Of a stretch of 64,000 bases of DNA, positions 22,770-50,170 are shown in pieces. The DNA is from a virus: UHGV virus genome UHGV-2111131; one strand, given 5' to 3'. Positions within the stretch are counted from its first letter, which is position 1, and each line of letters opens with the position of its first letter. Both the position numbers and the translations under genes were made by a program. The notes under the pieces were generated by a model. It saw only the letters and a list, made by a program, of their open reading frames with translations. It made no database searches and had not been told where the DNA came from.

Positions 22770-22912
22770 TGATTTTTAAAGCAGAGAAAGTGAAAATTAA
22801 AACATGCCGCAAGGCGCGGCATGTATCCAATCAATCACAGGAGCTGAAAATATGAACACGGCATTCAAAATCATTATGGCCGCGATCTATTTCTGGCTGT
22901 TCTCTATCACTT

Positions 22913-23674
22913 TTGGCGGCATCGTCGCGCATGGGTAAAGGGGGATGCATGAAAGGCGAAGTGAAAGAGCGCGGCATGATTTTCAACGATGAGATGGTCC
23001 GGGCCATCCTCGAAGGAAGGAAAACGCAGACGCGGCGGATAATGAAAAATCAGCCTGCGGAAGTTGGTCCAGAAGCACCGGTGATGGTTAGAAAAATTGG
23101 TGCAGGTTTTCAGTGGTACGGGGCTGATGGTGTAAGCAGTGTTTTCAATTGCCCCTTTGGTATCGTCAGCGATCGAATTTGGGTTCGTGAAACATGGGCG
23201 ATATTAGGCAATGAAGATGGTTGCAGTGTGGACTGGAACGACAACCTTTGTCGTGGCGATGAGAAGAACGCAGCAAGGATTTATCGGGCCAGTTGTGAGC
23301 AAAAGCCTGGTGATTACGGTTTATGGTCGATACCCGATGATGCCGACTGGAAACCTCACACTGTGAATGAAAAGTTTGATGGTGGGTGGCGTCCATCAAT
23401 TCACATGCCGCGATGGGCATCACGCATCCTGTTGGAAATTACCAACGTGCGCGTTGAGCGGTTGAACGATATCAGCGAATGCGATGCAAGGGATGAGGGC
23501 GTTCCGCCTGCTGGAAGTTTGCTTCCTGATCACCCGGGAACATTCCTTACTCCCAAGGGGGATTTCGCAATGGCCAAGGTTGCGTTCCAGCGCCTGTGGG
23601 AATCCATCTACGGCGAAGAAAGCTGGAGTGCTAATCCCTGGGTTTGGGTAATCGAGTTTGAGCGTATTCAGTAG
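22913..23674 (+). CDS. ASCH/PUA-like domain protein, 253 aa (start uncertain)
   Basis: N-terminal EMVRAILEGRKTQTRR signature. Confidence 0.5.
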   Translation: MAASSRMGKGGCMKGEVKERGMIFNDEMVRAILEGRKTQTRRIMKNQPAEVGPEAPVMVRKIGAGFQWYGADGVSSVFNCPFGIVSDRIWVRETWAILGNEDGCSVDWNDNLCRGDEKNAARIYRASCEQKPGDYGLWSIPDDADWKPHTVNEKFDGGWRPSIHMPRWASRILLEITNVRVERLNDISECDARDEGVPPAGSLLPDHPGTFLTPKGDFAMAKVAFQRLWESIYGEESWSANPWVWVIEFERIQ

Positions 23675-38240: not shown

Positions 38241-39272
38241 ATGTCCAATTTACTGACCGTACACCAAAATTTGCCTGCATTACCGGTCGATGCAACGAGT
38301 GATGAGGTTCGCAAGAACCTGATGGACATGTTCAGGGATCGCCAGGCGTTTTCTGAGCATACCTGGAAAATGCTTCTGTCCGTTTGCCGGTCGTGGGCGG
38401 CATGGTGCAAGTTGAATAACCGGAAGTGGTTTCCCGCAGAACCTGAAGATGTTCGCGATTATCTTCTATATCTTCAGGCGCGCGGTCTGGCAGTAAAAAC
38501 TATCCAGCAACATTTGGGCCAGCTAAACATGCTTCATCGTCGGTCCGGGCTGCCACGACCAAGTGACAGCAATGCTGTTTCACTGGTCATGCGGCGGATT
38601 CGAAAAGAAAACGTTGATGCCGGTGAACGTGCAAAACAGGCATTGGCGTTCGAACGCACTGATTTCGACCAGGTTCGTTCACTCATGGAAAATAGCGATC
38701 GCTGCCAGGATATACGTAATCTGGCATTTCTGGGGATCGCTTATAACACCCTGTTACGTATAGCCGAAATTGCCAGGATCAGGGTTAAAGATATCTCACG
38801 TACAGACGGTGGGAGAATGTTAATCCATATTGGCAGAACGAAAACGCTGGTTAGTACCGCGGGTGTAGAGAAGGCACTTAGCCTGGGGATAACTAAACTG
38901 GTCGAACGATGGATTTCTGTCTCTGGTGTGGCTGATGATCCGAATAACTACTTGTTTTGCCGGGTCAGAAAAAATGGTGTTGCCTCGCCATCACCCACCA
39001 GCCAGCTATCAACTCGCGCCCTGGAAGGGATTTTTGAAGCAACTCACCGATTGATTTACGGGGCTAAGGATGACTCTGGCCAGAGGTACCTGGCCTGGTC
39101 TGGACACAGTGCCCGTGTCGGAGCCGCGCGAGATATGGCCCGTGCCGGAGTTTCAATACCGGAGATCATGCAAGCTGGTGGCTGGACCAACGTAAATATT
39201 GTCATGAACTATATCCGTAACCTGGATAGTGAAACAGGGGCAATGGTGCGCCTGCTGGAAGATGGCGATTAG
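38241..39272 (+). CDS. cre: Cre tyrosine recombinase, 343 aa
   Basis: Near-identical to P1 Cre as recalled over the full length (a few substitutions). Confidence 0.98.
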   Translation: MSNLLTVHQNLPALPVDATSDEVRKNLMDMFRDRQAFSEHTWKMLLSVCRSWAAWCKLNNRKWFPAEPEDVRDYLLYLQARGLAVKTIQQHLGQLNMLHRRSGLPRPSDSNAVSLVMRRIRKENVDAGERAKQALAFERTDFDQVRSLMENSDRCQDIRNLAFLGIAYNTLLRIAEIARIRVKDISRTDGGRMLIHIGRTKTLVSTAGVEKALSLGITKLVERWISVSGVADDPNNYLFCRVRKNGVASPSPTSQLSTRALEGIFEATHRLIYGAKDDSGQRYLAWSGHSARVGAARDMARAGVSIPEIMQAGGWTNVNIVMNYIRNLDSETGAMVRLLEDGD

Positions 39273-40631: not shown

Positions 40632-41273
40632 ATGGATAAGAAAATATGCGTTGTTTCGATGAGCGTCGGCAAACCGGCGTCAATGACTGCTGCATGGATC
40701 AATAACGAGCTGATAATGGCTGAGCGGACCAGCTACCCTGAACGCCGCCGCGATATGGAACTCCAGCTGCTGCGCGAATTGCGAGAAAAAGAGGAAAAGG
40801 GTTTTATCGTGCTGGTGGAAGAGGAAAACAGCTTTATTACTGGTCGAGTTGGCCAGCGTGTAAGGTTGCGCGATCCCTTCATGAACGGCAGGCCGGTACT
40901 AATTGAGGCAATGCAGATTTATAAGGAGCTGGAACGCCAGAAAGCAATCAAGTTACCGCGCAAGGAATCCGGCAAATACATCCTCCACCAAAGCATCTTC
41001 GATTCCGAACACGATAAAAAAGGCGATGAATTTTTCAACATCAACTGGAGCGAAATAACGACAGAGCATGTTCTGACGTTACTATGTTGCTTTGCGACGG
41101 AATACAACAACGTTGCCAGCGCCGACTACATCAGGGCAATGGCAGGAGAAGTTGATGCCCGCCAGGAATCATCGTTACTAAGCCCTCTGATTAACATAAT
41201 TCGCGGAACCCAAACACTGGCACAAAAACGGGTGCCTAAAGGGGAGTTAACTGGAAAAGGAAATTATCTATAA
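40632..41273 (+). CDS. mat: Hypothetical protein, 213 aa
   Basis: Position after ref; name by synteny as recalled. Confidence 0.5.
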   Translation: MDKKICVVSMSVGKPASMTAAWINNELIMAERTSYPERRRDMELQLLRELREKEEKGFIVLVEEENSFITGRVGQRVRLRDPFMNGRPVLIEAMQIYKELERQKAIKLPRKESGKYILHQSIFDSEHDKKGDEFFNINWSEITTEHVLTLLCCFATEYNNVASADYIRAMAGEVDARQESSLLSPLINIIRGTQTLAQKRVPKGELTGKGNYL

Positions 41274-41329
41274 ACGTCAATGCATTAGGGTATACTTCTC
41301 CATAGAACTATAAGTAAATGGAGTAAGTA

Positions 41330-42637
41330 ATGAGCGAATATGTTGAGTTAGCATACGCTGCCGCTACAAGCAGGCTTTGTCTATTTACCGGGACTGGCTT
41401 TTCAAAGGCAGTCTCGAACGGTGAAGCTCCAACGTGGAAGGAACTATTAAAAAAAGTTTGCAGCAAAGTTCACAATGCCAAAAAGTTGGAAGACACGTTA
41501 TTCCCTGATGATAAACCACCAGCACTGAGTCTTGAAGAAGCCGCACAAATACTATCTTTGAAGCTCAATATTGAGGGTAAGTCGATTTATGATGAAATTG
41601 TTGACATCATATCTCCAATTCAACTTGGAGAAGACATATCAAATATAAAAGATTTTTTCCAAAAAAACTCATTCCGTGTCATTACAACAAATTATGACAA
41701 GTTGGCTGAATGCTTGGTTGGAGATGAAAGTGTGCAGTCTATCACGCCCGGTCTGCCAATTCCAAAGTATCCATCCAAGGTGAAAATATATCATGTTCAT
41801 GGTTCTATTGATTCGCCAAAAAATATGATTGTCACTTCAGATGATTACTTCAGATTTATAAATTCCGATACTTATTTTTCACGAAAACTTAGTACGATGC
41901 TGCATGAAAATACAGTTGCGATATTAGGGTATTCTTTAAGCGACACAAATCTTAAAGCAATTATAAATGACTATAAAAAATTTTCGAAAAATAATGCCCT
42001 GTGCTCTAATATCTTTTTGATATCTCGCAACAAAGTAAGTCAAGATATGAAGGATTATTACTTCTATTGCTTTGGTATAAGGGTAATTGACAATACAGAA
42101 ATAGATTGTTTCTTTAGTCGATTAAGTTATAAGATTTCTCTCATTAAAGACATCATTGAAAGAGCGCGCGAAAATATCAGAAAAGTTGTTTCGGGGGCTT
42201 ACACTTATAAAAATGAATATCTTAAATTAGAGGATTCATTTTATCAAATTATATCATCAATTATATCGGAAGGTTTAGATTGGAATGATGATAAAGTCGT
42301 TTCTCTTTTCGAAAGGATAATAGAAAAAAAGAGAAAGTTAACAAGGAATAACGGAGCGTGGGAGCAATATGAACAGTTGGCAAAATGGCTTATATATTTT
42401 GGAAGCATCATAGAGGTTAGCAATACTAAGTATGAAAAAACATATTTAGACGCAGTTGAATACTCGATGGGTCATATGAGTAAAGAAAGGAATTGGGGAG
42501 TTTCTTGGCATGCTTACAGAGCTTGGGAAACACGATGGCCTGCAATAATTGCCTCAAATAGATTAATGATAAAAAACCACATTGAAACATTAGGCACCTT
42601 GAAGGACGCCAACCTTATAGTTAAGAATATAGTGTAA
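41330..42637 (+). CDS. SIR2-like (SIR2_2/DSR-type) NAD-binding/NADase domain protein with uncharacterised helical C-terminal domain, 435 aa; candidate defense gene
   Basis: GTGFS (res 21-25) with P-W just after, TTNYD (119-123, N121 codon at 41690..41692) and YHVHGS (H157 codon at 41798..41800); GGAG RBS; strongly AT-rich relative to flanks. Confidence 0.75.
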   Translation: MSEYVELAYAAATSRLCLFTGTGFSKAVSNGEAPTWKELLKKVCSKVHNAKKLEDTLFPDDKPPALSLEEAAQILSLKLNIEGKSIYDEIVDIISPIQLGEDISNIKDFFQKNSFRVITTNYDKLAECLVGDESVQSITPGLPIPKYPSKVKIYHVHGSIDSPKNMIVTSDDYFRFINSDTYFSRKLSTMLHENTVAILGYSLSDTNLKAIINDYKKFSKNNALCSNIFLISRNKVSQDMKDYYFYCFGIRVIDNTEIDCFFSRLSYKISLIKDIIERARENIRKVVSGAYTYKNEYLKLEDSFYQIISSIISEGLDWNDDKVVSLFERIIEKKRKLTRNNGAWEQYEQLAKWLIYFGSIIEVSNTKYEKTYLDAVEYSMGHMSKERNWGVSWHAYRAWETRWPAIIASNRLMIKNHIETLGTLKDANLIVKNIV

Positions 42638-42654
42638 TTGTGGTCGATAAAAAT

Positions 42655-42682
42655 TTATCGGGCAGATAAAACTGCCCGATAA
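42655..42682 (-). terminator. Hairpin TTATCGGGCAG-ATAAAA-CTGCCCGATAA; T-rich run follows on the minus strand
   Basis: Perfect 11-bp inverted repeat between the convergent SIR2-like gene and lxc. Confidence 0.6.
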
Positions 42683-42683
42683 A

Positions 42684-42932
42684 TTAATCAGCATTCAGGA
42701 GCAATGCGTTATCTATGATGATCTGCTCCCATTCTTCGAATGCCCGGTCACGGACGCCCTGGGGAACGCTGTTAGTTTTGAAATCGACGACCGTCCGCCA
42801 TTTTCCGTCCGGACGGTACATGCGCAGAGCTTTACTTCCCCCTTCCCTGCGCACCTCAACGTTATGCTTGTCAGCAAACTCTTGTAATGCTCGTAGCGTC
42901 CCATGCTTTACTGTGTAGTATCGCTTTTTCAA
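42684..42932 (-). CDS. lxc: Small protein, 82 aa (TTG start with GGAGAG RBS)
   Basis: Position between the cargo slot and ulx/darB; name by synteny. Confidence 0.5.
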   Translation of the reverse strand: MKKRYYTVKHGTLRALQEFADKHNVEVRREGGSKALRMYRPDGKWRTVVDFKTNSVPQGVRDRAFEEWEQIIIDNALLLNAD

Positions 42933-43369
42933 GTTTTCTCTCCAGCCTGTGCTAAGGCTTCAACTTCCAAATCGTAAGACTCAAACTCATAGTCCTGGTC
43001 GTCAACCTCTTCAGGCACTGGCAGTAAATGCCAGGCTGAGTATATCTGACCATTATCAAAACGCTCCTGGCTGTAGAGCGTCGCGGCTATGAGTGTCAGC
43101 GCCGGGCGGTCATAACGGTAAATTTTGCGAACGTCACGGTCAACGAGACGACCGAAATTACCATAACCGCGCTCCAGTAATAATTTTTTAATTTCCGGCC
43201 AGTATGGGCCATAGCTGCGGTACAGGCGGGGATTTTTCAGTAATCGCCCGCGTAGCCCTGACAGGAAGAAATCAACGTATTCGTCTTCTGTCTTTCCTAA
43301 CAACGCTGTACGCAGTACCGCCTCAAGATATGTTTTATTCGGTTTTATTGTATCAGATAGTGTGGCCAT
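42929..43369 (-). CDS. ulx: Hypothetical protein, 146 aa, immediately upstream of darB
   Basis: Co-oriented with and adjacent to darB. Confidence 0.55.
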   Translation of the reverse strand: MATLSDTIKPNKTYLEAVLRTALLGKTEDEYVDFFLSGLRGRLLKNPRLYRSYGPYWPEIKKLLLERGYGNFGRLVDRDVRKIYRYDRPALTLIAATLYSQERFDNGQIYSAWHLLPVPEEVDDQDYEFESYDLEVEALAQAGEKT

Positions 43370-43402: not shown

Positions 43403-46400
43403 TTATGCGTATTGTTGGATGACGGCCAGAACGTCCGCCACGTTGTGTTTTGTCTCGATAATCCACCAGTTACCCGGGAAATCGCTGTTCTTCGCCTTCG
43501 CTGGCAGCCAGCGAGCGCCGAATTTCGCCTTGATTGCGTCTTTCGCACGGAAAAGAACTCCTTTCATGCCTGAGGCTTCCTGAAGCCCAAATACCTCGCC
43601 AGCGGCGAATTTTGGTGCGTACATCATCTTCAGGTCGGCGGTGGATACGCGATAATTCAGACCAAGAGACTGAGCTATGCTGGTGGCATCACCCTGTATT
43701 GATGATAACTCTTCTTGTTTCTCGTTTCTGGCGGCAATTTCTTCCTCCGTGATGTTGCCAAGGGCCAGGTTTATCCGATCAGCGTCGGCCTGTTTCTCTT
43801 CATCGGTGCGCCCGGCAAGAACCGTGTTAATTCTCTGCAATATCTCCACATGATTCTTGCGCATGCTGAGCAATTCCGGCGTAACCTCGTTAAGATCCAC
43901 CAGCCCAAGGATAGCAAGGTCGGAAAACATTGATACCAGGTTGTAGGTCATGCGATAGCTGAGTTGGCCATAGGCTGATGGCAACTGCACCGAATCCATT
44001 TTATAGGCATCCATAAATTTAGAGCCGTCGTTTACGACATCCGCAATTGCAGGTGTGATTTTCCCTGTGGTGGCGGCCTCCCTGATTGCTGTTACCCACG
44101 ATTGAGTCAGCGCGGCGACTGCATGATTCAGATTGGCTTCCCGTTCTGCTGCGATGCGCGCGCTTGCTGCGTCCATTGCCTGCTTGATCTCGGCTTTATT
44201 GCTGTAAATGCCAATAGTGCCAAACTGTGCTGTGGTGATCTCATAATCTGACGCCCGGAACTCATGGGTACCGAAAATGGCATTGGTGACCTCAAGTTCA
44301 GAATCCCCGTTACGAGTAGCCCCCTGGCTTGTTTTCTCCGGCATTTTTGCGATCGCATCCACTATTTTCTCCTGAATTGCTTCAGGGGATAGCGTATCTC
44401 CGTATGACGCGATTACATCGCCATAATTGGAGCCAAACAATTCAACCAGGAATGTTTCTGCCGAACGGATCTGGCGGTTATTCCCTTCCGACATCATACC
44501 AAGCACCCATTTTGCAATTGACGACTTCAGCGCGCCGTCACGGCGATCCGGGTAAACCGCATGCTTCAGTGGGTCCGTATAGGTACCAACAAAATCAATG
44601 CTATAGCCTGACTCTGTAGTCTGAACGCCGTATGAGTCAGTGATTTTGATCATGCCGCGCTGCTGGAAACGGTAGAAATCGTCACAGGAAATGATGTCGT
44701 TAATCCCAGCGATGGAGACGCCACCACTGATTTTCTGCATAACAGCATCTTCATCGGGAGTTACATCCACCTGTTTATCCAGCGTCTTCACATCCCAGTT
44801 ACCCGATTTGGTGCCTCTTAAGGTAAAGATGATCTCCACGTCTGCGCGCTGGCTGTCGAAGTCCAGCGACTTAATGCGAACGATATCACCGGCACAATCG
44901 TAGTATTGGCCTACACGCCATGAGCGATCGCCGATAACAAGGAACTCATTCGCATGGTTAACCAGATCAGGATCAACATCCAGAATGCCTTTATTTATTG
45001 CATCCTCCACCAGCGGGCGCAGGCGTTTGATATCCGTCGCGGCCTTCTGAGTACGGTTCAATAATTTCTCATAGCGGGAGATGGCCTGAGAGATATTAGC
45101 CTTGCGCTGAATGGCGCTTTTCAACGACGCGCGATACTGTGCTAACAACATACGGTCTGTGTGATGGACACTCCCCCAGCGGGCCTTCCAGTCTGCGTTA
45201 TCCGCTGCCTTGGCCATTGCCGCCTGTTTGAATTTAGCTACCTCGGCGGTGGTCTTTTCAAGTTCCGCTTTGCTTCGCTCTAATTCAGCGGTAAGTACCT
45301 CCACATCCTCGCCAGCTGCGTGCTGCGCCTTGATGTAGTTCTGAAGGTCGATAGTAGCCTGTTCTTTCTGGCGAGCGCGTTTCGCAGCTTTCGCCTTATC
45401 CATTTGAACCTGCATCATTGCCAGACGTTCGCCGTCATCCTTCGCGGTATACATCTGCATTTCGATCATGTCATTGGCGTCGGCGTTCTCCATTTCTGAC
45501 TTATCTGAACGGAGGATATCGGAGATCCAGCCTGCTTTACGCTTCAGCGTCTTCAGTCGGTATTCATCGAAAGACCCCTTGCCGCAGTAGTAGTGAACGC
45601 GAACGCTTGCACGGTTGGAACCAACTCGGGCACCGCGACCGTTACGCTGTGCGATACTGGCTGGTGTCCACGGCAACGTCAGGTGGTGGATATCCGTCGT
45701 TCCTCGATGCAGGTTGATACCCACCTCTGCCTTTTTGTTGCAGATGATGATCGGAGTCCGGCCCTCCTGGAAGTCGGCTGCAATCTTTTCCAGACCGCCC
45801 AACGACATTTCATTTTGCTGCGCGATATAGGCGTCATACAGAGCCATTTGCTCGTTGTATTTCGCTATCTGTGCATCTGTTGGTTCATCCGGTAGCTCTT
45901 TCGGCGGTTTAACCGCTTTCAGTTTCTTACCGGTTTTACCTGCCTCGGCAACCGTCTGAGCATTCAGGATCCCCACCTTTGAAGGTTCAAGGTTTAGAGC
46001 ATTGCAGATAATGCGCTTGAGCTTCTGGTGCTGCGTTTTTTCATCGGTGAAGATGATTTGCTTACCTTCCGGGAAAAACTCCTTCAGCGTGGCGATCAGC
46101 TTCGCGTATTTGGGCGTAACGGGGTGAGTTACGGTCTGTTCGTCAATGCCAAACCTGGCCAGGCGCTTATTCACTTCCTGCTCGAACGCTTCCGGAACCT
46201 GCAACTGAATAAACTCGCCCTTATCTATCAGGGAGTATTGCGATTGCTGCGTGATTGAATCATCACTGTCGTCGTCTTCGCTGGTGGCTTGTTTAGGCAA
46301 ACTGTCCGCCAGCTGCTGCACCGCATCGGCGTACTCCGGCAGGAAACGATAGGTGATCCGGCGATAGTACAGGTCCATGTCAGTACATACGCGGTCCATA

Positions 46401-49400
46401 TCCCTGATTATTGAGAAGATCGGACGGGCTTTCTCGTGCTCAATCACGCCGTCTTCATTGACCGAGGTCGTTACGCCATTGTTGGCTTTGGCCGCCGCTT
46501 CCGCCTGCTGACGCAATTCTTCATACGCCGCCAGTTGTTCTTCAGTAAGTGGTGCATCCTGCTGGTGTTCGTCCAGCTCCGGGATCTCCACGGTATCCTT
46601 AACGTCTTCCGCCGTTTTAAGCGTTACCCAGCGATGGAATATACCGCGCAGCGCATCAAGGTTTTCAAAGCCCACCAGCGCCATTTTTTCTTCAACTTCA
46701 CCGCTGATTTTCTGTACCGTTTCCAGCCTGGTCTTGCCGAAGAATTTAACGAAGTCATCAGGACCGTAGATCCCCATGTTCTGCCAGTATTCCTTCGGCA
46801 GAACATGAGAAAGCATGTTGTATGCATCGATCGGGGTGTTAACGACTGGCGTTGCAGTCAGGAGAACCGGCCCGCGCCCGCCATTCTTTTTCATCAGGTA
46901 CGCGTTTTTAATTGCCATATCTCGCGCCGATTGCGCCACCGCGCTGGTGGGCAGATAGGCCAGTTGTGACGCTTCGCGACCATTTTTATAGCTATTGCGG
47001 TAGTTGTGACCTTCGTCAGCGATCACACTATCGAAGCCCATATCCTCAAAGTACGGATACTTCTCTGCTTTTTCGGTGCCGGTATCTGAATACTCCGACA
47101 ATACCCGGCGACGCGCGGCCTCTTTGCGGTGGGAGTCGGAGTCCATTGCGCTGGCTACGCGTCCGGCGGCAACGAAGTCATAAAGCATATCCTGTGCATG
47201 CTCATCTACGGTGTCATCACGTAGCGGAATGCGGGCGTATTGTTCTTTGGTAAACACGACTGCACGGTAATTTGAGTGCGGGATCGCGTTCATCCGCGCC
47301 GTGATAGTGGCTTCATCTGCCAGCTTAAGAGCATCGCGCATAACTGGAGTGCCATCAGTACCAAGAACAGGTTTACCGTTCTCATCGAGCACCGGCACCT
47401 GGCGAATCTGATCGCCATCCATCAGCACATCAAGACCGACGAACAGGTAGTTACTGAATGCCTCTTCACTCAGGAATTCTTTTGCTTCGTAATACCAGTT
47501 TTCCAGCACTGATTTAGGCACTACATACGCAGTACGGGTGGAGCGACCGTTCTCATAGTTGAACGCCTCAAGCGCCAGCGCGGTCGTGGTTTTACCCAGC
47601 CCGGTGCCGAAGCCCAGGATGCCGCGCCCATCTTCGGACAGTCGGCGCACCTCGCTATTCTGGTAATCAAATGGCTGGCGCTTACCGCTTAATCCCTTCA
47701 ACCCAAGCGGATCGCCAGAGTGTTCATACGGGATATTGCTATTGAACACATCGTTGTATTTGGCAACCAGCTCATCGTAGCGATCGTGCGTCTTGATCCA
47801 CTTATTGAACTGGTCCTCAAGCAGTGCCATCTGCTCGCGGTAGCCGTTCGCCGTCGCGCTATCTTTGCCACCGATACGCGCACCATTGAGATACTTTTCC
47901 AGCTGTGCCGGGAACCCGGTCGCGTTTTCACCTGATTTACGGTCCCACTCGTAGCGGATCTCGCCTGTTTCTTTATCCTTGCGCTGGACGACACCGTATC
48001 GGTGCCCGACGAACAGACCATCACCACCGTGATAGGTGTCAGAAACCATTTCGTCGCCTTCCAGCTGCACTGACTGCACATAGCGCAGATCCGGATAGCC
48101 GTTTTCCTGCAAAAATTCCAGAATGACGGAACGGTCGAACCAACGGCTATTGAGCTTAAACCGGATATTCTCTGCTGGCGTCTTGATGCGCTTCTCTTCG
48201 ATCGCTGCCAGCTGATTAAGGACGTTGTTCTTTACTGGACCGTCGGTGAGCGTGGCGAGGAATTCCTGTTTTGGAGCCACTATCTCGTTAATGTCGCCGC
48301 TGGTGGCGCGGGCGAACGGAACAATCCCGCCATACGGTGAAACCGCAATGCCAGGGGTGCTGGCCAATAAATTAAGCAACTCGTCATCACTGGCTGGCAG
48401 TTCGCCGGTAAACGCAAGGCGGAAATCATCGAGCTGGATTGGATCGCGAGTGAGATCACTGTAGAGATAACGCAGGGTGTCCTGATAGCTGGTGGAGTCA
48501 TAACTGGCGCTGGAATCATGCGTAACCAGTTTTCCTGTCAGCTCGTCAGAAATAGTGCCATCCAGCTTAATTGCACCACGGAAAGCAAACCAGGCGCGCG
48601 CACCGCTCCCCGATAATTTCGCTATCGGACCGCGACTGGGGTTACCAAAACGGTCAATCTCTGCCTGCAAACGGGATACCAGAGAAAGGCGCTGCTGTTC
48701 GATTTGTTCAGCACTATGCCCGGCGGCCTTCATATCCTGATATTCAATTAACATCCGGCCAATCATCGCCCCACGATACAAGCGTTCACGGTATTTTTCA
48801 GGCTGGCTGTTAATCCAGTCCACCAGCTGCACCATATCGTCGCTGATTGATGTGGTGTACTTATCGCGGACATTTGCCATCTGGGTAAATGTCATACCGA
48901 GACGGCCTTCTGTTGTAGTCAGGTTACGCTGAAGAGCCTCCCAGCTATCCGCGCCATAACTGGCAACCTCAATCTTCAGCTCCTTCCCGGCATCAGCTTC
49001 AATCCAGCGACCACCAGCATATTTTTGCCATACGCCATTAATCAGGCGCATTTCCCCTTCATCAACAACATCTGCGGTCGGTGACGGTTCAGCCATATCG
49101 AGCAAAGACCAGTCGATACGACTTTCGAAACGATGAATCAGCTTCGCTTTAAGAGCCTGGTTATCAATCTGCCCGTCGGCACGAACCTCAATACGCCCCT
49201 GGAAGCCCTTTTCCTGGGTGCCATGAACAAACCGGCGGCCGTCCTTTTCAAACCACTTGCCAGAAATAAACGTTGGCCAAAGCACATTTGCCGATTCGAG
49301 AGTGCTTTCATCCACCAGGGGGATTTTCTCAGCCATCTCTGCCGGATGTTTGCGCATCAGCACCACATCAACGACTGTACTGGTCCCGTTTGCGTCAAAA

Positions 49401-50170
49401 GTACCGGTAGGCAAGCGGTGGGCACCAAGAAATTCAGCTTTCCGTGATAGGCGCAGGCGTAACCGCTTCATGTTTGAACCTGAAACAATGGACGGCGGCA
49501 CAATCACGCACATGAATCCGCCTGGCTTTATCTTGTCCAGCATGCGGAGCATGAAGTAAGAACCCATGTCCGTTTCTTCTGCGTAAGGCTTATCGATGTT
49601 GCGTGTGTTATCACGACCACCGAACGGAACGTTACCCACAACATGGTCGAATGAATCGTTAGGCGTGCTTACAGCCAGTTGTTCGAACGGGGAAATCTGT
49701 ACGCTGTCTTCCGGATGTAACAGCTGGTTTATACGACCGGAAACACTGCTGATCTCAGTCGCGGTCATCACCGTACCAACCGGTTTTGTCTCATTAAAAA
49801 CGCCGGTGCCCGCCGATGGTTCCAGAGTGTTACCTACGTCCGCGCCGTAGAGCTTCATGATCTCCCAGACACCTTCAGCGATCGGCTTTGGTGTGTAATA
49901 TTCGGAGACGGACCCGCCAATGCCGCCTTCACCGGTGTACCCAGCCAGGATCTGGCGCTGTTCATCGGTCAGTGTCGCGCCGTCCACCAGCGAATTAAGC
50001 AAATCTATCGCCTTCTGATTCGCCTCACGGCGCAGTCGGTCATAGCTTTTGCCTTCCACCTTTTCCACGCCGTATTTAATCGGCGCTCGGTGAGATGTTA
50101 TTGCCCTAATGTATTTTAATATTTCGCTGACACTTGAACAGCGAAACACCCCCATAGATAGCTTGTTCAT
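43403..50170 (-). CDS. darB: Giant 2255-aa methyltransferase-helicase (anti-restriction DarB-like)
   Basis: N-terminal N6-MTase-like motifs (EPSAGTGVF, VGNVPFGG), central DEAH-type helicase motifs (GFGTGLGKT, VIADEGHNYRN); length equals P1 DarB as recalled. Confidence 0.85.
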   Translation of the reverse strand: MNKLSMGVFRCSSVSEILKYIRAITSHRAPIKYGVEKVEGKSYDRLRREANQKAIDLLNSLVDGATLTDEQRQILAGYTGEGGIGGSVSEYYTPKPIAEGVWEIMKLYGADVGNTLEPSAGTGVFNETKPVGTVMTATEISSVSGRINQLLHPEDSVQISPFEQLAVSTPNDSFDHVVGNVPFGGRDNTRNIDKPYAEETDMGSYFMLRMLDKIKPGGFMCVIVPPSIVSGSNMKRLRLRLSRKAEFLGAHRLPTGTFDANGTSTVVDVVLMRKHPAEMAEKIPLVDESTLESANVLWPTFISGKWFEKDGRRFVHGTQEKGFQGRIEVRADGQIDNQALKAKLIHRFESRIDWSLLDMAEPSPTADVVDEGEMRLINGVWQKYAGGRWIEADAGKELKIEVASYGADSWEALQRNLTTTEGRLGMTFTQMANVRDKYTTSISDDMVQLVDWINSQPEKYRERLYRGAMIGRMLIEYQDMKAAGHSAEQIEQQRLSLVSRLQAEIDRFGNPSRGPIAKLSGSGARAWFAFRGAIKLDGTISDELTGKLVTHDSSASYDSTSYQDTLRYLYSDLTRDPIQLDDFRLAFTGELPASDDELLNLLASTPGIAVSPYGGIVPFARATSGDINEIVAPKQEFLATLTDGPVKNNVLNQLAAIEEKRIKTPAENIRFKLNSRWFDRSVILEFLQENGYPDLRYVQSVQLEGDEMVSDTYHGGDGLFVGHRYGVVQRKDKETGEIRYEWDRKSGENATGFPAQLEKYLNGARIGGKDSATANGYREQMALLEDQFNKWIKTHDRYDELVAKYNDVFNSNIPYEHSGDPLGLKGLSGKRQPFDYQNSEVRRLSEDGRGILGFGTGLGKTTTALALEAFNYENGRSTRTAYVVPKSVLENWYYEAKEFLSEEAFSNYLFVGLDVLMDGDQIRQVPVLDENGKPVLGTDGTPVMRDALKLADEATITARMNAIPHSNYRAVVFTKEQYARIPLRDDTVDEHAQDMLYDFVAAGRVASAMDSDSHRKEAARRRVLSEYSDTGTEKAEKYPYFEDMGFDSVIADEGHNYRNSYKNGREASQLAYLPTSAVAQSARDMAIKNAYLMKKNGGRGPVLLTATPVVNTPIDAYNMLSHVLPKEYWQNMGIYGPDDFVKFFGKTRLETVQKISGEVEEKMALVGFENLDALRGIFHRWVTLKTAEDVKDTVEIPELDEHQQDAPLTEEQLAAYEELRQQAEAAAKANNGVTTSVNEDGVIEHEKARPIFSIIRDMDRVCTDMDLYYRRITYRFLPEYADAVQQLADSLPKQATSEDDDSDDSITQQSQYSLIDKGEFIQLQVPEAFEQEVNKRLARFGIDEQTVTHPVTPKYAKLIATLKEFFPEGKQIIFTDEKTQHQKLKRIICNALNLEPSKVGILNAQTVAEAGKTGKKLKAVKPPKELPDEPTDAQIAKYNEQMALYDAYIAQQNEMSLGGLEKIAADFQEGRTPIIICNKKAEVGINLHRGTTDIHHLTLPWTPASIAQRNGRGARVGSNRASVRVHYYCGKGSFDEYRLKTLKRKAGWISDILRSDKSEMENADANDMIEMQMYTAKDDGERLAMMQVQMDKAKAAKRARQKEQATIDLQNYIKAQHAAGEDVEVLTAELERSKAELEKTTAEVAKFKQAAMAKAADNADWKARWGSVHHTDRMLLAQYRASLKSAIQRKANISQAISRYEKLLNRTQKAATDIKRLRPLVEDAINKGILDVDPDLVNHANEFLVIGDRSWRVGQYYDCAGDIVRIKSLDFDSQRADVEIIFTLRGTKSGNWDVKTLDKQVDVTPDEDAVMQKISGGVSIAGINDIISCDDFYRFQQRGMIKITDSYGVQTTESGYSIDFVGTYTDPLKHAVYPDRRDGALKSSIAKWVLGMMSEGNNRQIRSAETFLVELFGSNYGDVIASYGDTLSPEAIQEKIVDAIAKMPEKTSQGATRNGDSELEVTNAIFGTHEFRASDYEITTAQFGTIGIYSNKAEIKQAMDAASARIAAEREANLNHAVAALTQSWVTAIREAATTGKITPAIADVVNDGSKFMDAYKMDSVQLPSAYGQLSYRMTYNLVSMFSDLAILGLVDLNEVTPELLSMRKNHVEILQRINTVLAGRTDEEKQADADRINLALGNITEEEIAARNEKQEELSSIQGDATSIAQSLGLNYRVSTADLKMMYAPKFAAGEVFGLQEASGMKGVLFRAKDAIKAKFGARWLPAKAKNSDFPGNWWIIETKHNVADVLAVIQQYA

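Follow-up and report, generated by a model that had tools for sequence, protein, structure and literature searches.

A SIR2-type gene cassette in the mat–lxc slot of P1-like phage-plasmids as a probable single-protein anti-phage defence

Overview of the cassette

The mat–lxc slot of the P1-like genome UHGV-2111131, analyzed here as a 64,000-nucleotide window, contains a low-G+C cassette (positions 41274–42683) whose only gene, judging from its sequence, probably codes for a SIR2-type NAD+ hydrolase that carries, in the same polypeptide, a helical C-terminal domain private to its family. The likeliest role of the cassette is an NAD-depleting abortive-infection defence carried out by this one protein. 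The hotspot itself is not new, and the SIR2 cassette is one allele of it; the slot has been published as RD-1 (Venturini et al. 2019; PMC6906374) and as ‘highly variable region 1’ (PMC9603915). These two papers focus mainly on resistance-gene mobilization and backbone diversity, and they neither name the SIR2 cargo nor define the anatomy of the cassette. The new part is a very common slot occupant that has so far been unnamed.

Composition and gene content of the cassette

The segment at 41274–42683 has a G+C content of 34.8%, versus 48.6% for the whole window, 48.2% for the left flank (cre to mat) and 52.0% for the right flank (lxc to darB). In a sliding-window scan over all 1410-bp segments of the 64 kb, its G+C content is the lowest (z = −4.56, with 0.16% of the segments equally low), and it is the sole run below 40% G+C, in agreement with an earlier note on this DNA that had described, by eye, a lone AT-rich gene of about one-third G+C in ∼1.4 kb between flanks of roughly half. 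A single ORF is present on the plus strand (41330–42637; 435 residues) with a GC3 of 32.3%, versus 47–58% in the flanking genes, and no second ORF of more than 55 residues is found between mat and lxc.

On the left side, the 642-nt ORF of the maturation control gene mat (40632–41273, plus strand) is equal in length to RCS47 mat. On the right side, lxc (C1 modulator; 42684–42932), ulx (Ulx-like anti-restriction; 42929–43369) and darB (N-6 DNA methylase/helicase, defence against restriction; 43403–50170) are encoded on the minus strand. The flanks, comprising cre, c8, ref and mat on the left and lxc, ulx and darB on the right, are conserved phage backbone, as had been proposed, with 94–100% identity to P1, RCS47, SJ46 and JL22. 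The segment between them starts with a 56-nt leader (41274–41329, plus strand), which was delimited by boundary alignment and has a GGAG ribosome-binding site 8 nt upstream of the start codon (ATG), continues into the SIR2 gene and ends in a hairpin specific to the cassette, with a perfect 14-bp stem and a 6-nt loop (42652–42685, both strands). The whole segment is probably a self-contained accessory cassette, with a conserved leader, a single gene and a terminator hairpin of its own.

The mat–lxc slot in P1 and other P1-like elements

In P1, mat (2716–3468) is followed by res (3544–6456), the mod region and lxc (9750–9998), and res-mod thus fills exactly the same slot, as the earlier note had stated. 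The IS1 that was thought to accompany res-mod is located elsewhere. The insertion sequence in the P1 slot is IS5 (7652–8846; mod749::IS5 of reference P1), and the IS1 of P1 lies 13 kb away from the slot between isaA and isaB (22626–23393). The IS1 placement comes from the P1 annotation; a query of the window with an IS1 end gave no match and is not relied on here. Alignment with P1-like genomes sets the exchange boundaries at the stop codons of mat and lxc. Non-SIR2 genomes of this group align with the window up to the first base of the leader, and from the lxc stop codon onward all P1-like genomes are again homologous. The gene is not universal backbone of normal composition: RCS47 has an empty slot (39 bp), and elsewhere other cargos fill the slot.

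At least nine different cargos occupy the slot among other P1-like elements, and at least ten states are counted in all, with the backbone otherwise >95% identical; the cargo is indeed swappable. The contents across P1-like elements are EcoP1I res-mod, CapRel-SJ46, PIN, DUF2971, YaaC (accompanied by a 169-residue partner), GNAT, EAL and three variants of the SIR2 gene. Every cargo has a G+C content of 32–39%, and every cargo type carries its own, different strong terminator hairpin at the corresponding position. The SIR2 cassette follows this pattern in its location between mat and lxc, its low G+C content and its replacement by other content on >95% identical backbones. A defence role has been established experimentally for two occupants, the EcoP1I type III restriction-modification system and CapRel-SJ46 (the SJ46 slot gene is identical to PDB 7ZTB), and three occupants, including the SIR2 gene, resemble defence proteins or PADLOC candidates. 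The YaaC, GNAT and EAL occupants have no defence annotation. The term ‘defence cargo’ of the earlier note therefore holds for part of the occupants, ‘defence-enriched accessory hotspot’ is a more accurate label, and guilt by association is weakened as an argument for the SIR2 gene.

The other occupants also bear on a rather unlikely alternative, in which a toxin-like SIR2 protein would serve inter-element competition or plasmid maintenance by excluding P1-like elements or plasmids or by penalizing loss of the phage-plasmid. The res-mod genes of the slot are treated as a plasmid addiction system in the literature (PMC6906374), CapRel is a fused toxin–antitoxin, and the SIR2 gene is found almost exclusively on low-copy, non-mobilizable phage-plasmids. 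However, the cassette contains no antitoxin-like second ORF and the protein no recognizable fused antitoxin-like region, some viable P1-like elements have an empty slot, and many homologues reside in chromosomes and integrated prophages, for which an addiction function makes little sense.

Exchange of the cassette between backbones

The last ∼100–190 nt of mat, which encode the ∼40 C-terminal residues of Mat, co-vary with the cargo type. Compared with the window, the final 92 nt of mat are 92–95% identical in SIR2-bearing elements and 54–85% identical in elements with other cargo, and the length and the ...VPxGxLTGKxNYL motif of the Mat C-termini are kept. Moreover, alleles a1 and a2 form a gradient mosaic. 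Given the cargo-linked mat 3′ ends and this mosaic, the most probable route of the cassette between P1-like backbones is general homologous recombination in the flanks, where crossovers would fall in lxc/ulx/darB on one side and in the 3′ part of mat on the other, without a site-specific mechanism. Site-specific or integron-like exchange, with the hairpins as attC-like sites, was rejected because the hairpins are wholly different between cargo types and neither junction, both of which coincide with stop codons, has a conserved core site.

Leader and terminator hairpin

The leader is unchanged in allele a2 and differs by one substitution in variant v3, despite only 59% identity between the a1 and v3 proteins. 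A consensus scan detected no σ70-like promoter in the 56-nt leader; elsewhere in the region, it returned six sites versus 5.8 expected by chance. Transcription reading through from mat could thus be needed for expression of the cassette in the lysogen. In P1, mat is repressed by C1 and expressed late, and the P1 record places a late promoter and a C1 operator upstream of it.

The two arms of the hairpin stem (42652–42665 and 42672–42685) form 14 perfect base pairs, with folding energies of −23.1 and −23.9 kcal/mol and z values of −6.4 and −5.9, and none of 200 shuffled sequences folds equally well. The hairpin begins 14 nt past the SIR2 stop codon (17 nt when only the 11-bp core is counted), and its final two base pairs overlap the lxc stop codon (42684–42686). 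The perfect 11-bp hairpin that had been placed 18 bp past the gene is real and stronger than described, with a longer stem that starts closer to the stop codon. Because a U-run (UUUUUAU) follows the stem on the minus strand only, the hairpin is mainly the intrinsic terminator of the lxc-ulx-darB operon, and it also forms at the 3′ end of the SIR2 transcript. It is not shared backbone, as it differs in each cargo type. This 14-bp hairpin escaped the terminator scan, for which a U-run lying partly within the maximal stem is the probable reason.

The surroundings of the gene have some bearing on a highly improbable role in counter-defence, in which the SIR2 protein would help the phage beside the Dar operon, for example by destroying NAD-derived immune signals or manipulating host NAD metabolism during P1 infection. 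The gene adjoins lxc-ulx-darB and lies downstream of mat and the late promoter and C1 operator annotated in P1, and the leader scan detected no promoter of its own. Nevertheless, it is convergent with the Dar operon and outside it, with a strong terminator in between, and it has homologues in non-phage chromosomal contexts. Slot occupants of known function are defences rather than anti-defences, and the close structural relatives of the protein are all host-side defence effectors.

Domain structure of the SIR2 protein

The N-terminal domain (residues 1–257; 41330–42100, plus strand) is a SIR2-like (SIR2_2) NADase-type domain. The Pfam SIR2_2 profile (PF13289) matches residues 117–252 with 84.4 bits, versus a gathering cutoff of 24.5. 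The GTGFS (residues 20–25), TTN121YD and HVH157GS motifs are invariant in 42 homologues, and the catalytic N121 and H157 residues are intact and align to N133 and H171 of DSR2. The closest structures are the immune NADases KomC, ThsA, Avs5 and DSR2, and DSR2 is both the best PDB sequence match (4.5e-10) and the top Foldseek match. The RefSeq product name, ‘SIR2 family NAD-dependent protein deacylase’, would suggest a conventional sirtuin that modifies a host or phage protein in a regulatory role, and the Rossmann-type SIR2 fold and catalytic histidine are indeed common to sirtuins. Such an activity is very unlikely: the Zn-binding CxxC module is absent from the SIR2 protein, and the protein has neither the Zn-binding Cys4 module of classical sirtuins nor its closest folds among them.

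The C-terminal domain (residues 258–435; 42101–42637 including the stop codon, plus strand) is all-helical, gives no SLOG match and is confined to the ∼435-residue family. It is presumed to be the sensor or regulatory domain. A shuffled module was considered and rejected, because a domain-only search of 1.84 billion representatives returned only proteins of ∼430–480 residues or fragments; each of the 10 distant full-length matches that were checked contains SIR2_2. Since the domain never occurs on other effectors, the presumed sensor role is drawn from analogy and from the faster evolution of the domain.

A search with PADLOC matched PDC-S25 (best, 1.4e-26), ThsA, LmuA and Dsr2. The PDC-S25 match covers profile positions 127–289 of 517 (residues 100–259 of the protein), that is, the SIR2 domain only, and the ThsA match is limited to residues 119–238. 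The NCBIfam equivalogs Dsr1 and Dsr2 score 26.2 and 22.5 bits, respectively, versus a cutoff of 1400, and align to residues 112–209 only. No curated defence-system model calls the 435-residue protein. Its full length is matched by PHROGs phrog_7567 (E 3.8e-248; residues 1–434 on profile positions 1–434 of 434), which is assigned to the category ‘unknown function’. The PD-* models are presumably included in PADLOC v2. The PADLOC search gave no PD-* match at E ≤ 0.1, and the ‘Sir2 homologue’ system (Vassallo 2022) was rejected as an identity for the protein. A partner gene was also rejected, as none is present in the cassette and none is conserved beside the homologues in E. coli, Pantoea, Pseudoalteromonas and Paracidovorax; likewise, the four genomic contexts examined show no TIR gene near the homologues. 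Among the systems listed in a DefenseFinder survey of P1-like elements, none is of the SIR2 type. A literature search by accession or name (WP_000006034, A0A1D7QAD5 and three others) found no paper, and no experimental record of the SIR2 protein or any family member was found in the literature library searched.

Comparison with known defence systems

Like DSR2 and DSR1 (defence-associated sirtuins; Garb et al. 2022; structures 8WKX, 8K98 and others), the SIR2 protein combines an N-terminal SIR2 NADase domain and an all-helical repeat-like region in one polypeptide. DSR2 is ∼1000 residues long (∼1000–1260 residues for DSR1/DSR2) and binds the phage tail tube through a long HEAT-like sensor, whereas the SIR2 protein has 435 residues and a ∼175-residue private helical domain, and the similarity between DSR2 and the SIR2 protein is found in the SIR2 domain only. 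ThsA of Thoeris and KomC of Kongming are SIR2 NADase effectors that are activated by small molecules and form filaments. In ThsA, the C-terminal domain is of the signal-binding SLOG/STALD type and ThsB is required, whereas the cassette encodes an unrelated helical domain and no thsB. KomC needs KomA/KomB, SIR2-HerA (Nezha) needs HerA, and LmuA-SIR2 of Lamassu needs the SMC protein LmuB; in contrast, the SIR2 cassette is a single gene without a partner and with backbone on both sides. PDC-S25, a single-gene phage-defence candidate of PADLOC, is a stand-alone SIR2 protein like the cassette protein, but the C-terminal domain of the latter lies outside the match, which indicates a different family.

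CapRel-SJ46, a fused toxin–antitoxin abortive-infection protein (Zhang et al. 2022; PMC9712102; PDB 7ZTB), is encoded in the identical mat–lxc slot of SJ46 by one low-G+C plus-strand gene with its own terminator hairpin. CapRel-SJ46 unites the sensor and the toxic effector in one protein, as proposed for the SIR2 protein, but is unrelated in sequence kind, being a RelA/SpoT tRNA pyrophosphokinase and not a SIR2 NADase. The EcoP1I res-mod genes of P1 share the locus, low G+C content and replaceability of the SIR2 cassette. The P2/P4 antiviral hotspots (Rousset et al. 2022; PMC9122126) likewise alternate diverse small low-G+C defence cassettes at a fixed backbone position, but they belong to another phage family with other flanking genes, whereas the host element here is a plasmid-prophage.

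Distribution and sequence divergence of the SIR2 family

The SIR2 family is carried by 127 PLSDB plasmids, about 15–17% of the PLSDB plasmids matching the region, and by 134 of 5426 complete E. coli genomes. Contigs with the exact protein number 555, and at least 1000 contigs carry variant v3. None of the deposited phage genomes in the collection searched (50,697 records) encodes the family, and the evidence for its carriage thus comes entirely from records deposited as plasmids. In the mat–lxc slot, three deeply diverged SIR2 variants, with coding bodies 59–87% identical, lie behind one conserved leader. Outside the slot, an E. coli homologue is located at a prophage end adjoining the integrase, a Pantoea homologue adjoins a dGTPase-like HD gene, and a Paracidovorax homologue lies near SMC/AAA genes. 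The homologues are low in G+C relative to the host, and their positions are typical of defence genes.

The SIR2 gene is under purifying selection, with ω values of 0.16 for the whole gene and 0.07 for the SIR2 domain and with 180 substitutions between alleles. The C-terminal domain evolves ∼7 times faster than the SIR2 domain (dN of 0.169 versus 0.024), the pattern that an arms race would be expected to produce in a sensor. At least one frameshifted copy exists (NZ_CP016549), and the slot tolerates emptiness, as would be the case for a hitch-hiking or decaying passenger without current function. The ω values argue against a passenger, as do the full-length ORF on hundreds of contigs and the retention of length and motifs across Proteobacteria at 52–62% identity, and this explanation has very little probability.

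Proposed function and significance

In the proposed abortive-infection mechanism, the plasmid prophage would produce the SIR2 protein in an inactive state. Upon infection by another phage, the C-terminal domain may sense a phage component or an infection-induced change, and the SIR2 domain would be released or assembled into an active oligomer, like DSR2, ThsA, KomC and Avs5. The resulting depletion of NAD+ would render the infected cell unable to support phage growth and thereby protect the clonal population carrying the phage-plasmid. In a broader proposal, to which we attach roughly even confidence, the ∼435-residue proteins with a SIR2 domain and the private helical domain may constitute a distinct single-protein anti-phage family (‘mini-DSR’). 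The phage would be sensed by its short, fast-evolving C-terminal domain, the three variants would represent alternative recognition specificities, and the commonest cargo of the P1 slot would be a defence system that is called neither by DefenseFinder nor, as a complete system, by PADLOC.

P1-like phage-plasmids spread by infection and are frequently found in E. coli and Salmonella of clinical and livestock origin. If the cassette is a working NAD-depletion defence, about one-sixth of the P1-like plasmids in PLSDB would confer unannotated phage resistance, which would bear on phage therapy and on ‘defensome’ surveys. With the same backbone and leader and coding bodies of 59–87% identity, sensor-swap experiments on specificity would be straightforward. 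CapRel-SJ46 is one of the best-understood single-protein sensors, and its presence in the slot makes YaaC with its 169-residue partner, DUF2971, PIN, GNAT and EAL a short list of further candidates.

Anatomy of the mat–lxc slot

The window represents a phage-plasmid of the P1-like type. The left flank of the slot, the interval between mat and lxc, begins with cre (38241-39272), followed on the plus strand by c8, ref and mat (40632-41273). On the right, the convergent Dar operon consists of lxc (42684-42932), ulx (42929-43369) and darB (43403-50170), all on the minus strand. The segment from the mat stop to the lxc stop is 1410 bp long (41274-42683), and its sole ORF of note is the SIR2 gene (41330-42637, plus strand), which encodes 435 residues; no second ORF of more than 55 residues is found between the two stops. 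The segment has a G+C content of 34.8% and a GC3 of 32.3%, compared with 48-52% and 47-58% in the flanks and a G+C content of 48.6% in the whole window. In a sliding-window analysis, a check proposed in the earlier note, it ranks lowest in G+C among the 1410-bp windows of the 64 kb (z = -4.6), and it is the sole stretch below 40%. The description in that note of one AT-rich gene in a ~1.4-kb slot between flanks of roughly half G+C is thus accurate.

The cassette, composed of a leader, the SIR2 gene and a hairpin, closes at 42652-42685 with a perfect 14-bp stem and a 6-nt loop (dG ~-23 kcal/mol, z ~-6), and none of the shuffled sequences folds equally well. The 5' edge of the hairpin is located 14 nt past the SIR2 stop codon, and its last 2 bp fall within the lxc stop codon. 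A perfect hairpin had been noticed before with an 11-bp stem; it exists, and its stem is longer and stronger. Because a U-run follows the hairpin on the minus strand only, the structure serves chiefly to terminate the lxc-ulx-darB operon. A weaker second palindrome (CGATAAA..TTTATCG, 42645-42660) shares bases with the 5' arm of this hairpin and would let the SIR2 transcript pair differently upstream of the terminator.

The slot accommodates exchangeable cargo

In P1, mat (2716-3468) is followed by res (3544-6456, minus strand), the mod region and lxc (9750-9998), with ulx and darB beyond. This order bears out the placement of res-mod at this position in the earlier note. The IS1 of that note is misplaced: since P1 was sequenced from a mod749::IS5 strain, the insertion sequence in the slot of its record is IS5, and IS1 is found 13 kb off, between isaA and isaB (22626-23393).

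Junction alignments with the P1-like genomes P1, RCS47, SJ46 and JL22 place the breaks in homology precisely at the stop codons of mat and lxc. The content between these breaks, checked in every case by annotation and coordinates, differs among elements, as expected of the swappable hotspot proposed earlier, and slot polymorphism is therefore established. The RCS47 slot is empty (39 bp) and contains a single GC-rich hairpin. P1 carries res-mod with IS5 (6281 bp; ~5.08 kb without IS5), SJ46 a 373-residue RelA/SpoT gene (1271 bp), JL22 and CP062905 a 316-residue PIN_12 protein (1054 bp), CP083412 a 336-residue DUF2971 protein (1190 bp), CP020522 YaaC with a 169-residue ORF (1698 bp), CP057359 GNAT (889 bp), CP029493 EAL with ~1 kb lacking annotation (1740 bp) and CP023961 the SIR2 variant v3 (1402 bp). 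All occupied slots have a G+C content of 32-39%. Each closes with its own, different strong hairpin a few bases from the lxc stop, and the hairpin is thus a cassette part rather than shared backbone.

The SJ46 slot gene is identical over 373 residues to PDB 7ZTB, CapRel-SJ46, an abortive-infection protein by experiment (PMC9712102). Two slot occupants, CapRel-SJ46 and EcoP1I (P1 res-mod), are therefore proven defences. The DUF2971 and PIN cargos show partial PADLOC matches to the candidates PDC-S31 and PDC-S34, and the YaaC, GNAT and EAL cargos show none. The YaaC cassette (NZ_CP020522.1, L014 5089-6638) comprises two abutting genes, YaaC (346 residues) and the 169-residue ORF, which has a weak, below-threshold nucleoside 2-deoxyribosyltransferase-like match (E 2e-4). 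Neither gene matches PADLOC; the cassette equals SIR2 in its frequency at this locus, and the pair is an obvious candidate system. The EAL slot (NZ_CP029493.1, L018 5748-6741 for the ~1 kb without an annotated gene) has the lowest G+C content of the slots (32.3%), and a gene of the c-di-GMP phosphodiesterase type is unexpected in a defence-rich location.

Occupants were tallied in an evenly spaced sample drawn from the 822 PLSDB records matching the region, which gave ~46 informative rows and rough counts: SIR2 in 8, YaaC in 7-8, DUF2971 in 6, EAL in 5, CapRel in 4, an empty slot in 3, type III R-M and GNAT in 2 each and PIN in 1. Among the sampled rows, SIR2 thus leads the occupants, alone or jointly, and canonical res-mod is a minority state.

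The hotspot has been published as RD-1, in which res-mod is swapped for element-specific ORFs at AT-rich loci (Venturini et al. 2019, PMC6906374), and a 2022 survey lists res-mod as the low-G+C 'highly variable region 1' (PMC9603915). For P1/D6 elements, a 2025 survey with DefenseFinder lists type III R-M, dGTPase, PrrC and CapRel, with no mention of SIR2. Our literature search found no paper naming the SIR2 protein or testing any family member. The novelty is modest, since both the hotspot and SIR2-based effectors were already known; it lies in the apparent standing of SIR2 as commonest occupant, its invisibility to current defence annotation and its sharing of a slot with CapRel-SJ46.

Cassette exchange and the mat 3' end

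In all elements compared, the right flank matches the window at 91-100% identity, starting with the first 100 nt of lxc. On the left, the last ~100-190 nt of mat track cargo type, with 92-95% identity to the window in elements with SIR2 alleles versus 54-85% in those with other cargo. The last ~40 residues of Mat (41080-41273; compared with L014-L019 and L002-L004) vary accordingly. The length of the Mat C-terminus and its ...VPxGxLTGKxNYL motif are conserved across cargo types, which indicates that the divergence is old and selected rather than damage. Each cassette lineage is read as dragging its own anciently diverged mat 3' end, a recombination footprint; the Mat C-terminus and the cargo may also be functionally linked. 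Because no conserved site or repeat was found at the junctions by alignment and hairpin comparison, we infer homologous recombination as the route of exchange, with crossovers falling within mat and in lxc/ulx/darB. That the junctions coincide with stop codons would then be a product of selection, not of mechanism. Tn3-family transposons abut or replace the ref-mat side in some elements, including Tn1721 TnpA in SJ46 (L003 1-469) and TnAs3 in pRHB16-C13_3 (CP057733.1, L020 1-2574); the latter lacks mat, yet its SIR2 cassette and lxc are intact.

The cargo is a two-domain SIR2 protein

Pfam assigns residues 117-252 to SIR2_2 (PF13289, 84 bits), and the family is phrog_7567 in PHROGs (unknown function). 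PADLOC matches to PDC-S25, ThsA, LmuA, Dsr2, SIR2 and Dsr1 are all restricted to the SIR2 domain, and NCBIfam scores for Dsr1 (26 bits) and Dsr2 (22 bits) compare with cutoffs of 1400. Among solved structures, those nearest in sequence are DSR2 (4.5e-10), KomC and ThsA, and the protein is also structurally akin to immune NADases. The TTN121YD and HVH157GS motifs align with the catalytic N133 and H171 residues of DSR2 and are invariant in a 42-sequence alignment; the catalytic site is intact. The evidence best supports an abortive-infection defence by a single SIR2 NADase protein, carried as one allele of the P1 mat-lxc slot. The protein would cleave NAD, and a true deacylase is less consistent with the evidence.

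The AlphaFold model, which has good confidence (pLDDT 85.8, pTM 0.71), predicts a SIR2 Rossmann domain (residues ~1-255) and an all-helical domain (residues 258-431). Invariant C-terminal aromatics in the same alignment include W344, Y347, W353, W393, Y396, W399 and W403. Searching 5.8 billion proteins yielded 684 relatives. Among the best 120, nearly all have 431-444 residues with at least 95% query coverage in nearly every case, identity is 52-62% outside the Enterobacteriaceae clade, and sources include Xenorhabdus, Pantoea, Vibrio, Halomonas, Pseudomonas, Rhizobium and Paracidovorax. The C-terminal domain alone, searched against 1.84 billion representatives, matched 75 clusters, all of them fragments or proteins of ~420-480 residues with the domain at the same position, and all ten distant full-length matches checked have an N-terminal SIR2_2 domain. 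The family therefore has a fixed two-domain architecture, and a shuffled sensor module was rejected. Infection may activate the protein through this C-terminal domain, and the protein may oligomerise.

Genomic context of homologues

No conserved partner gene was found beside homologues in the E. coli, Pantoea, Paracidovorax and Pseudoalteromonas contexts. The solo status of the SIR2 gene is established. A counter-defence partner of the adjoining Dar operon and a competition or addiction module carried by the element are both less consistent with the evidence than a single-protein defence.

In E. coli chromosomes, the homologue is located at a prophage end, directly after the integrase. One such protein, P0010 (60% identity; L005-L008 8001-9311), occupies the extreme end of a lambdoid-type prophage and adjoins ccm and two-component response-regulator genes of the host; one strain has an AIDA-type autotransporter between the SIR2 gene and the host genes. 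The Pantoea homologue (59% identity; GCA_021272205.1, L009 6628-9308) is located 143 bp downstream of a co-oriented, dGTPase-like HD/HD_assoc gene. Since dGTPase is one of the defence types reported for P1-like elements, the pair may be a small defence island. The Paracidovorax homologue is near SMC/AAA genes, and that of Pseudoalteromonas stands alone. The G+C content of homologues versus surroundings is 0.33 versus 0.50 in E. coli, 0.41 versus 0.55 in Pantoea and 0.42 versus 0.64 in Paracidovorax.

Variants, prevalence and selection

The family occurs in 127 PLSDB plasmids, of which ~41 carry a1, the window allele (at least 95% amino acid identity), ~17 a2 (80-90%) and ~69 v3 (57-61%). Almost all are E. 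coli plasmids of ~90-120 kb, and 112 are typed as non-mobilizable. A DNA match is present in 134 of the 5426 complete E. coli genomes (135 places on plasmids, two on chromosomes). None of 50,697 deposited phage genomes encodes the family, so the only known carriers of the cargo are P1-like elements that were sequenced as plasmids. Exact copies of the a1 protein occur on 555 contigs, and the v3 protein on at least 1000.

A neighbour-joining tree groups the three variants, which share a 56-nt leader with a GGAG ribosome-binding site, with one substitution in v3; despite this near-identical leader, the a1 and v3 proteins are only 59% identical. No promoter is detectable in the leader, and P1 mat is C1-controlled and late-expressed (P1 record). 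On the defence reading, the SIR2 gene may be expressed in the lysogen.

The a1 and a2 proteins form a gradient mosaic. Identity is complete over the first ~100 residues, 95% in the SIR2 domain (dN/dS 0.07) and 74% in the C-terminal domain (dN/dS 0.19), where dN is 7-fold higher than in the SIR2 domain. This pattern indicates purifying selection, with the C-terminal half diversifying much faster, and a dead passenger is less consistent with it than a functional defence gene. The a2 copy in NZ_CP016549.1 (L021 5056-6400) is frameshifted within the C-terminal domain; its annotation gives a truncated protein of 366 residues, and it exemplifies cargo decay.
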